From the NCBI RefSeq assembly GCF_988243305.1, contig NZ_OZ547136.1: a stretch of DNA of 64,000 nucleotides; one strand, 5' to 3'. Each line of letters begins with the position of its first letter. The stretch's first letter is position 1. This document shows positions 3,449 through 7,003 of the stretch, one piece after another. The position numbers were made by a program, and so were the translations under genes. The notes beneath the pieces were generated by a model. The model saw only the letters and a list, made by a program, of their open reading frames with translations. It searched no databases and was not told where the DNA came from.

Positions 3449-4237
3449 TTAACCTATCTGCACCGACAGCATACTTAAACTGCCCATCTCTATGCCATCA
3501 ACCGGAACAGTCACCGGCTCCTGACCATCCCACGCACCTAATACATACAACAGTGGCAGAAAGTGTTCCGGTGTTGGGTTCGATAACGCCCCTCCTTCAT
3601 GGTCGAGGTAATTCACCAGAGGATGCTGCTCTACCGGCCCTTGCCACGTCAGATTCGCTTTCACATACTCATTAAACGACATCGCCCACGGATACGGTGA
3701 ACTATCACCGTGCCACTTCACTGTGCGCAGGTTATGTACCACGTTACCGCTGGCGACCAACATTATTCCTTCATCTCGCAGCGCTGCCAGTTTACGCCCC
3801 ATCTCAAGGTGCCAGGCGGCGGGTTTGGTGCTATCAATACTTAACTGCACCATCGGGATATCCGCTTGCGGATACATCTTAATCAGCACGCCCCACGAGC
3901 CGTGGTCAAAGCCCCAGGCTTCTTTATCCAGCGTCACCGGGACCGGCGCTAACAGCTCAACCAGATGCTGTGCCAGCGCAGGCGAACCCGGAGCAGGATA
4001 ATGCGTGTCGTACAGCGCCTGCGGGAAGCCACCAAAGTCATGAATCGTGGGCGGCGTCTCCATCGCGGTCACTCCTGTTCCACGGGTAAACCAGTGAGCC
4101 GAAACCACCACAATCGCTTGCGGGCGTGGCAATGTCATCCCCAACTTCTGCCAGCTGCGGGTATACAAATTATCTTCCAGCACGTTCATCGGACTACCGT
4201 GACCTAAAAACAATGCTGGCATACGTGTTGAAGACAT
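3449..4237 (-). CDS. ygiD: Class III extradiol dioxygenase-like protein (DOPA-dioxygenase family), 262 aa
   Basis: Translation MSSTRMPALFLGHGSPMN...; ORF-track start at 4264 is further upstream, ATG at 4237 chosen to match the known 262-aa length. Confidence 0.8.
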   Translation of the reverse strand: MSSTRMPALFLGHGSPMNVLEDNLYTRSWQKLGMTLPRPQAIVVVSAHWFTRGTGVTAMETPPTIHDFGGFPQALYDTHYPAPGSPALAQHLVELLAPVPVTLDKEAWGFDHGSWGVLIKMYPQADIPMVQLSIDSTKPAAWHLEMGRKLAALRDEGIMLVASGNVVHNLRTVKWHGDSSPYPWAMSFNEYVKANLTWQGPVEQHPLVNYLDHEGGALSNPTPEHFLPLLYVLGAWDGQEPVTVPVDGIEMGSLSMLSVQIG

Positions 4238-4379
4238 GATGATATCCTTAACTAAAGGTGTCATTTTGATATCCTCACAATACGCTTGTTCGGCGGAGTA
4301 AGAACCCGGATAACAATGATGATGATCATCAGTTATTTTGACGATCTGCCTGAAGGTGAAGATTTATAAGGAGTTGTCG

Positions 4380-5153
4380 ATGTCAGTACCTCTCATTCTG
4401 ACCATACTGGCGGGGGCAGCCACGTTTATTGGCGCGTTTCTCGGCGTTCTCGGGCAAAAACCCTCGAACCGCTTACTGGCGTTTTCGCTAGGATTTGCGG
4501 CGGGGATCATGTTGCTCATCTCATTAATGGAAATGCTTCCTGCCGCACTAGCAGCCGAAGGAATGTCGCCTGTGTTGGGTTATGGAATGTTTATCTTCGG
4601 TCTGCTTGGCTATTTTGGCCTGGACCGCATGTTGCCACATGCGCATCCGCAGGATTTAATGCAAAAATCGGTGCAGCCGTTGCCAAAATCGATCAAGCGC
4701 ACAGCCATTCTGCTCACTCTCGGCATCAGTCTGCATAACTTCCCGGAAGGGATTGCCACCTTTGTCACTGCGAGCAGCAACCTGGAGCTGGGCTTTGGCA
4801 TCGCACTGGCCGTTGCGTTACACAATATTCCTGAAGGTCTGGCGGTTGCAGGCCCGGTTTACGCGGCAACGGGGTCTAAACGCACCGCGATTCTTTGGGC
4901 GGGGATTTCTGGACTGGCAGAAATTCTTGGTGGTGTGCTGGCGTGGTTAATCCTCGGTAGCATGATTTCCCCGGTGGTCATGGCGGCAATCATGGCGGCG
5001 GTTGCAGGAATTATGGTGGCGCTCTCGGTTGATGAATTAATGCCGCTCGCCAAAGAGATTGACCCTAATAATAACCCCAGCTATGGCGTACTATGTGGAA
5101 TGTCAGTGATGGGATTCAGTTTAGTGCTGCTACAAACGGCGGGAATTGGTTAA
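4380..5153 (+). CDS. zupT: Zinc transporter, ZIP family (257 aa)
   Basis: ATG at 4380 preceded by AAGGAG; ORF-track start at 4338 is a TTG; polytopic membrane protein with HNxPEG motifs. Confidence 0.9.
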
Positions 5154-5163
5154 AAACAACATC

Positions 5164-5192
5164 AGAAGTTGTCCAGCGCATGGACAACTTCT
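5164..5192. terminator. Perfect 12-bp inverted repeat (AGAAGTTGTCCA/TGGACAACTTCT, 5-nt loop), probable bidirectional terminator
   Basis: Read directly in sequence between convergent zupT and the small minus-strand ORF. Confidence 0.6.
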
Positions 5193-5210
5193 GCCAGCTT
5201 CACGAAAGCC

Positions 5211-5381
5211 TTATTCTACCTTTTCGGCTGTCTCTTCTCTCGTACTGTTTAAGTATTTGTTCCGCGCTTCAAGCAGTGCGTCTCTGTCCTGGCGAAACGC
5301 CCGACAATAACGTTTCAAATGCAGGAAATAACCCACCACAACCAGAGCAATCAATACAATCCAGTACCAGGCGATAAACAT
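5211..5381 (-). CDS. Small single-pass membrane protein (56 aa), hypothetical
   Basis: ATG at 5381 preceded by AAGGGTAAAAGG; one hydrophobic helix (FIAWYWIVLIALVVVGYFL) followed by a charged tail; ends at the bidirectional terminator. Confidence 0.45.
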   Translation of the reverse strand: MFIAWYWIVLIALVVVGYFLHLKRYCRAFRQDRDALLEARNKYLNSTREETAEKVE

Positions 5382-5642
5382 CCTTTTACCCTTAATATTT
5401 AACAATACTAAACATTTAGCGCATAAATTTCACATATCCTTTTTCGGATATATTCATATGGTCGCATAATAACGGAACAATTATATGATTTTGATCATAA
5501 TGAAAAAGAATGCCTGATATTAATGAAATTTTCTCATAGAAAGAGAAGCGGAATTAACATCTTGCATAGCAGGGAAAAATAAAAACCGAAGCCTGCTACA
5601 ACTTCGGTTTCTTGATTAAGGCAGTAAATTAAGCAGCGGTTT

Positions 5643-6296
5643 TCAGCTGGCTTTACGCTCATGTGCCTGACGATAAGCCACCAGGTCTTCAATAGTCACG
5701 AGCGCCATATTGTGTTTATTGGCAAACTCAATGCACTCTGGTGCACGCGCCATCGTGCCATCGTCATTAGTCAGCTCACACAGCACACCAGCCGGTTTAA
5801 AGCCTGCCAGCGTCATCAGATCAATAGTCGCTTCAGTATGGCCGCCACGCGTCAGTACACCACCAGCCTGAGCGCGAAGTGGGAAAACGTGGCCCGGGCG
5901 ATTCAGATCAGAAGGTTTTGCGTCATCGGCAATCGCTGCGCGAACGGTCATAATACGGTCAGCGGCAGAAACACCGGTAGTCACACCTTCAGCCGCTTCA
6001 ATGGTCACGGTAAAACCGGTGCCATAGGCGCTGGTGTTATTTTCTACCATCATTGGCAGATCAAGTTGTTTACGGCGATCTTCAGTAATGCACAGGCAAA
6101 CAATACCGCTACCGTGGCGAATGGTCAGCGCCATCTGCTCAACGGTCATGGTTTCTGCCGGGAAGATCATATCGCCTTCGTTTTCACGGTCTTCATCATC
6201 AAGCACCATTACACCGCGTCCTTCACGCAGCGCAGCCAGTGCATTTTCAACACGTTCGAAAGGCGTACCAAAAGAGGAAAGTAGCGTCTGATTCAT
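5643..6296 (-). CDS. ribB: 3,4-dihydroxy-2-butanone 4-phosphate synthase (217 aa)
   Basis: Translation matches RibB full length; upstream FMN riboswitch. Confidence 0.95.
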
Positions 6297-6540
6297 GGTA
6301 AAAAAACCTCACTAAAATTATGGTTACCAGAATCAGGGCAGTCTTAGGAGTGGCGGCATATAGCCAAAATAACGTGAGCGGGTCCATGCCCGACAGAATC
6401 GTTACTCTCTCCCATCCGGACTCTAACCGTCGGCCCCGGAATTACACCGGATCTGCTGTCCTTTGAGTTCGCACCCAAAGCGCTCGCGGGCTTTCAACTG
6501 AGTTGATTTACCGCCGGTGGGGAATTTCGCCCCGCCCTGA
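6297..6540 (-). ncRNA. sroG: FMN riboswitch (RFN element / sroG) in the ribB leader
   Basis: Minus-strand sequence contains the conserved RFN core (AGGGCGGGGCGAAATTCCCCACCGGCGGTAAATCAACTCAGTTGAAAGCCCGCGAGCGCTTTGGGTGCGAACTCAAAGGACAGCAGATCCGGTGTAATTCCGGGGCCGACGGTTAGAGTCCGGATGGGAGAG) at about 6400-6538. Confidence 0.9.
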
Positions 6541-6669
6541 GAATAAGCGGATTCACTATAACGCTAATGATTAGCGGCAGCAACGCATAGCTTCACATAA
6601 TTCTGGTTTATGACTTACCCTTATCGCACTACAATGGCACTCAACACCTATCAGTACAGGGAAACTACA

Positions 6670-6969
6670 ATGATTGACCCGAAAAAAATTGAGCAAATCG
6701 CTCGCCAGGTTCACGAATCAATGCCTAAAGGAATCAGGGAGTTCGGGGAAGATGTGGAGAAAAAAATCCGCCAAACCCTACAAGCGCAGCTGACGCGTCT
6801 CGATCTGGTAAGCCGCGAAGAATTCGACGTTCAGACGCAAGTCCTGTTACGGACTCGTGAAAAACTGGCGTTACTGGAGCAGCGCATCAGTGAACTGGAA
6901 GCGCGCAATAATTCGGTAGCAGATCTTCAATCTCCTCCGGCTATCCCGCCTATTGATAAAGCAGAATAA
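6670..6969 (+). CDS. ubiK: Ubiquinone biosynthesis accessory factor UbiK (YqiC), coiled-coil protein (99 aa)
   Basis: Translation [16 protein letters not shown]... with leucine-zipper-like C-terminus; ORF-track start at 6610 is upstream of the known start. Confidence 0.8.
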
Positions 6970-6982
6970 AGCAACACAAAAA

Positions 6983-6999
6983 CGGGCCAGACGGCCCGT
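6983..6999. terminator. Short GC hairpin (CGGGCC-AGAC-GGCCCG) between convergent ubiK and glgS
   Basis: Inverted repeat read in sequence. Confidence 0.5.
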
Positions 7000-7003
7000 A
7001 ATA

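Follow-up and report, generated by a model that had tools for sequence, protein, structure and literature searches.

The small gene yqiD between zupT and ribB of Escherichia coli: a known, conserved gene for a predicted single-pass membrane protein

The gene between zupT and ribB

The window analysed here, a stretch of 64,000 nucleotides from RefSeq contig NZ_OZ547136.1 (assembly GCF_988243305.1), carries between zupT and ribB a minus-strand open reading frame that begins with ATG, comprises 56 codons plus TAA, occupies positions 5211-5381 and translates into MFIAWYWIVLIALVVVGYFLHLKRYCRAFRQDRDALLEARNKYLNSTREETAEKVE. As read from the sequence, the unit to which this frame belongs is monocistronic and consists of a Shine-Dalgarno sequence, the 56-codon frame and a hairpin/U-tract terminator reaching up to the stop codon of zupT, the convergent gene. 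Read along the minus strand, its features are as follows.

5484-5499, minus strand: palindrome TATGATCAAAATCATA, 16 bp, with resemblance to CRP/FNR-family sites, centred about 40.5-41.5 bp upstream of the predicted transcription start
5458-5466, minus strand: predicted extended -10 element, composed of TG (5466-5465), one base (C) and the hexamer GACCAT (5463-5458)
5382-5451, minus strand: predicted 5' leader of about 70 nt, the transcription start being placed near 5451-5450
5389-5394, minus strand: Shine-Dalgarno sequence UAAGGG, at -13 to -8, 7 nt upstream of the ATG
5211-5381, minus strand: yqiD coding sequence, with a predicted transmembrane helix (residues 2-20), a conserved basic juxtamembrane helix (residues 23-43) and a variable acidic tail (residues 44-56)
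5153-5193, minus strand: intrinsic terminator of yqiD, a 13-bp stem with a 5-nt loop (5193-5163) followed by AUGUUGUUUU (5162-5153)

Comparison of window positions 5100-5700 by megablast with 5,426 complete E. coli genomes yields matches in 5,425. The DNA of strain 118UI is 100% identical to the window and that of K-12 is 99.5% identical (0.5% differing positions in the 601-bp stretch compared), and the annotated features beneath the match are 'zupT', 'yqiD: protein YqiD' and 'ribB'. The RefSeq annotation on identical DNA confirms the neighbours, zupT at 4380-5153 on the plus strand and ribB at 5643-6296 on the minus strand, and the RefSeq coding sequence yqiD (WP_000469266.1, 171 nt) maps exactly to window positions 5211-5381 in both 118UI and K-12 MG1655. 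VanOrsdel et al. 2018 (PMC6001520) place yqiD at K-12 positions 3,183,381-3,183,551, between zupT and ribB, and report YqiD as one of 36 small proteins that they saw on immunoblots after SPA tagging on the chromosome; they note that YqiD had also been an unidentified positive in a tetracycline ribosome-profiling screen. Synthesis of YqiD is thus demonstrated in that study and its membrane insertion is predicted. All 56 of the 56 residues encoded in the window are identical to the sequence printed there, and the K-12 protein is also unchanged, so that the gene of the window and yqiD of K-12 share protein sequence, position between zupT and ribB and relative strand, and do not differ beyond the 0.5% at the DNA level. 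The locus identifier b4756 is given in a 2026 paper, and the gene has carried its name and b-number since the 2018 study.

Given the RefSeq annotation, the identical published sequence and the published detection, yqiD is an already known gene and its reading from sequence is a correct rediscovery. That the frame in the window is yqiD, a real and expressed protein-coding gene, is to us practically certain. The initial annotation had rightly described an ATG-started 56-residue frame between zupT and ribB, as both the translation and the RefSeq coding sequence at the same coordinates bear out, and had seen in it a genuine gene for a single-pass membrane protein, a reading that purifying selection across genera and the published protein detection uphold, the membrane span being a prediction. 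It was mistaken in calling the gene unannotated, because RefSeq already names it yqiD, 'protein YqiD', at exactly these positions in 118UI and MG1655. Named, numbered, shown to be translated in 2018 and annotated in RefSeq, yqiD is not a discovery; it is a useful positive control, in which a reading of sequence alone recovered a small membrane-protein gene that standard annotation had missed for two decades. Literature hits for the name yqiD are mostly to the unrelated ispA homologue of B. subtilis. Our literature search for yqiD, b4756 or DUF4051 found no functional study, nor any experiment in the accessible literature on the localisation, partners or phenotype of YqiD.

The hydropathy of residues 2-20, the distribution of charges and a single-helix structural model agree on the architecture that had been proposed from the letters, one clear transmembrane helix with a charged C-terminal tail, again as a prediction. 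The most hydrophobic run of 19 residues is 2-20 (Kyte-Doolittle mean 2.43), residues 23-43 hold seven K/R and three D/E, and the last 13 residues are net acidic. The conserved basic juxtamembrane segment reads KRYCRAFRQDRDALLEAR. AlphaFold2 models YqiD as one continuous helix from residue 2 to residue 55, with a mean pLDDT of 75. By the positive-inside rule we infer that residues 2-20 span the inner membrane with the N-terminus out, leaving essentially no residues in the periplasm and the remainder of the protein in the cytoplasm. Scans of YqiD against Pfam and NCBIfam gave nothing above cut-off, only sub-threshold unrelated matches, which in the Pfam-A copy are DUF2621, DUF4381 and DUF6526. 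As this copy gave no match to DUF4051, a model that may have left the library, the family name DUF4051 rests on NCBI and UniRef labels. A profile search of the PDB with YqiD revealed no relative.

Conservation of the reading frame and a second E. coli allele

Orthologous loci were compared from E. albertii, C. freundii, C. rodentium, two lineages of S. enterica and a second E. coli allele. In 21 pairwise comparisons codons 1-43 of yqiD show dN/dS values of 0.04-0.16, and their synonymous sites are saturated or close to it; of the 61 variable columns, 34 fall on third codon positions, and in most taxa the alternative frames are interrupted by stops. From codon 44 to the end the sequence evolves almost freely. 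The initial annotation had proposed conservation and the pattern of synonymous substitutions across Enterobacteriaceae as a check, and had named a frame that is not conserved in related genomes as evidence against the gene. We find that the frame persists in Escherichia, Salmonella and Citrobacter as well as in remoter Enterobacteriaceae and is under purifying selection, and therefore this objection falls away.

The start site is conserved as well. The Shine-Dalgarno sequence forms a predicted duplex of about -5 kcal/mol with the 3' end of 16S rRNA, and AAGG(G/A)T is kept in the cross-genus alignments, so that the ATG with a reasonable ribosome-binding site noticed at the outset stands: UAAGGG, duplex energy and the conservation of start codon and Shine-Dalgarno sequence across genera all speak for it. 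An in-frame TTG further upstream was considered as an alternative start and is ruled out by a 1-nt indel directly upstream of the ATG in the O18 allele and in Salmonella.

A word-indexed search identified 108 close homologues of YqiD in Escherichia, Citrobacter and Salmonella, some of them labelled 'DUF4051 domain-containing protein'. Searching 1.84 billion cluster representatives with an HMM built from 22 sequences returned only 22 hits, and cluster look-ups revealed distant relatives, 30-48% identical, in Kosakonia, Phytobacter, some Enterobacter, Atlantibacter and Intestinirhabdus; all named members of the family belong to the Enterobacteriaceae. Residues conserved throughout the family are M1, W5, R24, A28, R30, R33 and A35, and the motif [KR]-R-x-C-[RK]-A-[FY]-R-Q-[DE]-R-[DE]-A-L lies right behind the transmembrane helix. 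His21 is specific to the group of Escherichia, Salmonella and Citrobacter. Metal binding through a C-H-x4-C arrangement (Cys20, His21 and Cys26 in Citrobacter and Salmonella) was considered and is weakened, as His21, Cys20 and, less so, Cys26 are not kept in the distant relatives. In Salmonella bongori (P0096, P0108) the usual MFIAWYW start is absent, and gene calling yields either a protein that starts further upstream and has another N-terminus or a 37-residue fragment; the gene may be decaying in this species.

Of 5,425 complete E. coli genomes, 991 (about 18%) have, in the place of window positions 5155-5500, a divergent copy of yqiD, 76-77% identical at the DNA level, whose product is listed as 'hypothetical protein' WP_001296421.1. 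The two alleles share 66% amino-acid identity and their synonymous divergence, about 1.9, equals the level seen between genera. Divergence begins immediately past the zupT stop codon. The closest relatives of the divergent allele are proteins of E. fergusonii, and the allele is accompanied by a four-gene chaperone-usher fimbrial operon between yqiD and ribB; the locus compared here is that of E. coli O18 (NZ_CP007275.1, 2531578-2537355; L002/L004). This O18 or E. fergusonii-type allele resembles yqiD of the window in its length of 56 residues, its locus, the N-terminal 43-residue core, the palindrome, the extended -10 element and the type of hairpin, and differs from it in that RefSeq does not name it yqiD and in the inserted fimbrial operon. 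One recombinant of both alleles was seen (P0013).

Promoter region, leader and terminator

DNA more than about 120 nt from the yqiD ATG has a mean identity of 0.40 and is effectively unalignable, whereas 14 of the 16 columns of the palindrome are the same in all seven taxa compared, and its mean pairwise identity is 0.93. Its motif occurs once in the window against 0.01 occurrences expected by chance. The extended -10 element lies eighteen bases downstream of the palindrome, and in it the TG and hexamer positions 5 and 6 (A5, T6) are invariant and A2 nearly so in an alignment of ten sequences. We infer that TG-C-GACCAT serves as the yqiD promoter, such that yqiD would be transcribed on its own, from an extended -10 element behind a conserved CRP/FNR-like palindrome. 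From this arrangement the transcription start is predicted near 5451-5450 and the centre of the palindrome at about -40.5 to -41.5.

Class II CRP- or FNR-dependent promoters have the activator site centred near -41.5. The FNR consensus is TTGAT-N4-ATCAA and the CRP consensus TGTGA-N6-TCACA. Scored against these two cores, TATGATCAAAATCATA matches at 8 of 10 positions in each case; both of its half-sites deviate at the very base that discriminates FNR from CRP, and it carries beside the spacer the T/A typical of FNR. Since the palindrome lies in the predicted class II position before an extended -10 element, dependence of yqiD on a global activator is possible, and we put forward activation by FNR or CRP as a tentative proposal, somewhat less likely than its opposite. 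Our search found no literature on the site, and the palindrome is not recognisable in the most distant relatives (Phytobacter, P0112). Other readings of this DNA were rejected. The promoter predicted by a tool, TTAATA-18-TATGAT, was not retained as the main one, its -35 lying in unconserved DNA and its -10 coinciding with the left palindrome arm; a Fur box is a poor fit, as it agrees at about 11 of 19 positions and its spacing is wrong; a MerR-type operator does not fit a site that is not located between -35 and -10; and a TATAAT overlapping the palindrome is found in two taxa only.

The 50 nt before the ATG (5382-5431) show a mean pairwise identity of 75% across the seven taxa despite saturation of synonymous sites in the coding sequence. 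That this stretch is far better conserved than synonymous sites suggests post-transcriptional control of yqiD. The start region GUAAAAGGAUGU resembles the CsrA SELEX consensus RUACARGGAUGU. In C. freundii the GGA of this type of start region is lost.

Published data agree that expression of yqiD is transcriptionally variable and regulated. Among natural isolates, cis variants upstream of yqiD alter its expression (bioRxiv 10.1101/2025.06.10.658842). In enteroaggregative E. coli 042 (EAEC 042), a DUF4051-family frame is up in an aar mutant, as one of three validated genes (PMC5570504); because each E. coli genome has one such locus, this frame would correspond to yqiD.

At the other end of the unit, a hairpin at 5163-5193 begins 17 nt past the yqiD stop codon. 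It folds with -24.9 kcal/mol, and its z-score against shuffled sequences is -3.8 to -4.0 on either strand. The T-run AUGUUGUUUUU follows on the yqiD strand only and continues into the zupT stop codon, the end of the T-tract, position 5153, being the last base of that codon on the opposite strand. On the plus strand, that of zupT, the stem is followed by CCAGCUUCACG, which is not a U tract; the same asymmetry between strands is seen in other taxa, and a scan of 4900-5800 found no plus-strand terminator. The hairpin, a stem-loop with an immediate U tract on the minus strand and none on the other, therefore qualifies as a canonical intrinsic terminator on the yqiD side alone and is not demonstrably bidirectional. 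The initial annotation had described a perfect 12-bp bidirectional terminator, shared with zupT, at which the frame ends directly: the stem is indeed perfect, yet it measures 13 bp with a 5-nt loop; the frame ends close to it, with the gap of 17 nt between; and a bidirectional action, shared with zupT, is not supported by the sequence. Compensatory changes keep the stem in the O18 allele, in E. albertii and in Salmonella, its arms being CAGAAGTTGTCCA/TGGACAACTTCTG in the window, CAGATGTTGCC/GGCAACATCTG in O18 and CCGGATG.TGCC/GGCA.CATCCGG in Salmonella.

Linkage to zupT and the likely role of YqiD

At every locus with an identified downstream neighbour (L005, L008-L012, L014, L015), yqiD converges with a Zip-family gene, zupT. 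The distance from stop to stop ranges from 67 nt down to a 4-nt overlap, the non-overlapping pairs being 19-67 nt apart; the overlap of 4 nt is found in an Enterobacter-type relative (L012, 3198-3201). On two short contigs a partly sequenced convergent frame follows a yqiD-like gene, and on one of these, a metagenomic contig (L016, 1676-1722), the two frames overlap by 47 nt, the convergent partner being an unidentified partial frame. Where frames overlap, as in these two cases (L012, L016), the mRNAs must overlap too, making a coupling through convergent transcription possible. A 2-kb Logan contig encodes a predicted protein of 125 residues (P0123) in which the first ~70 residues of ZupT are followed by a C-terminal half like YqiD; since zupT and yqiD are convergent, such a fusion would require an inversion, and it is most likely an assembly artefact.

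The other side of yqiD is variable. In K-12-type E. coli, C. freundii and the distant relatives, ribB lies upstream; O18-type E. coli and E. albertii have a fimbrial operon in this place, and Salmonella and C. rodentium have assT-dsbL-dsbI. An Rfam scan of 4300-6700 gave a single match above threshold, the ribB FMN riboswitch (RF00050, 120.9 bits; 6400-6548, minus strand); a match of STnc240 to the ribB terminator was discarded, scoring 29 bits against a gathering score of 55. The ribB terminator (5581-5612, minus strand) has a 13-bp stem followed by a T-run. Elsewhere in the window strain glgS directly follows ubiK, the ygiL-yqiGHI fimbrial operon of K-12 being absent.

What might a protein of this kind do? 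Characterised small inner-membrane regulators of enterobacteria include AcrZ (acting on AcrB), MgtS (MgtA and PitA), MgrB (PhoQ), SgrT (PtsG), KdpF and CydX. With 56 residues (the class reaching to about 60), one predicted transmembrane helix and no enzymatic domain, YqiD has the features of a small single-pass inner-membrane regulator, and it resembles the named proteins, likewise below 60 residues, in the concentration of conservation in the transmembrane and juxtamembrane segment and in a condition-dependent expression, which the conserved regulatory site suggests. Unlike the members of this class, yqiD is convergent with the gene of its candidate partner, zupT, and is not co-transcribed with it; YqiD shares no sequence similarity with any of them, and its partner is only a candidate. 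YqiD would be anchored in the inner membrane with the N-terminus out and the C-terminus in, the surface under selection being the transmembrane helix together with the basic cytoplasmic juxtamembrane helix, and the acidic tail drifting. It would have no activity of its own and would bind a larger inner-membrane protein through these two segments. By this analogy YqiD is probably a membrane-anchored adaptor or modulator. The explanation taken as a whole, namely the identity of yqiD, its own transcription unit and a small membrane-protein modulator as the likeliest role, we hold with high confidence. The linkage to zupT across Enterobacteriaceae, the conserved CRP/FNR-like site and leader, and the two deeply divergent alleles in E. 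coli are starting points for work on its function.

Which protein might YqiD bind? ZupT, a ZIP-family metal importer, is the leading candidate, because yqiD stands tail-to-tail with zupT in every context examined, down to relatives that are only 30-40% identical, as the other side changes. Even so we consider this partnership unlikely, since convergent genes so closely spaced could stay linked for that reason alone and many bacteria that bear zupT have no yqiD. Given that the latter is true of many Enterobacterales, YqiD cannot be required for ZupT function. Less likely again is the more specific proposal that YqiD is a dedicated partner of ZupT, a membrane-anchored cytoplasmic helix under CRP/FNR-type control that would tune the activity or stability of the transporter, possibly with an added coupling through convergent transcription; if true, YqiD would be the first small-protein regulator of a bacterial ZIP transporter.

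Three other explanations would deny YqiD such a role. It could be a type I toxin, a membrane-damaging peptide held in check by antisense RNA from the 3' end of the convergent zupT transcript, and its size and N-terminal hydrophobic helix do resemble toxins of the Hok and Ldr types. Moreover, the missing U tract behind the hairpin on the zupT strand means that zupT transcripts could read antisense into yqiD, and in some relatives the two frames overlap. Any antisense overlap, however, would lie at the 3' end of yqiD and not over its leader or ribosome-binding site, and no antitoxin or sRNA family turned up in the Rfam scan of the region. As a rule, genes for type I toxins occur in several copies and have a patchy distribution, whereas yqiD has a single copy, keeps its synteny strictly and is strongly constrained by purifying selection across genera; it thus shows neither the antisense RNA over leader or ribosome-binding site nor the distribution by which type I systems are recognised. 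In addition, ordinary LB cultures produce tagged YqiD from its chromosomal gene, and the protein is grouped with those seen mostly at high levels (PMC6001520). We therefore regard a toxin as very improbable.

Just as improbable is that the RNA itself is the product, the transcript regulating zupT as a cis-antisense or through convergent transcription and the peptide being incidental. The conserved leader and the conserved tail-to-tail arrangement, with its close spacing or overlap, speak for such an RNA, but the low dN/dS values and the dominance of third-position changes form a protein-like codon pattern, the amino-acid motif persists at 30-40% identity, where the DNA can no longer be aligned, and the terminator in E. 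coli stops yqiD RNA at the zupT stop codon, leaving little overlap with the zupT coding region. yqiD may have a dual function, as RNA and as protein.

Finally, short frames are common (the interval 3500-7000 alone lists 40 of at least 25 residues, mostly meaningless), and yet the chance that yqiD is an accidental open frame with a hydrophobic stretch in an AT-rich intergenic spacer is negligible in view of purifying selection, of a start codon and Shine-Dalgarno sequence conserved across genera, and of immunoblot detection and a ribosome-profiling signal (PMC6001520).
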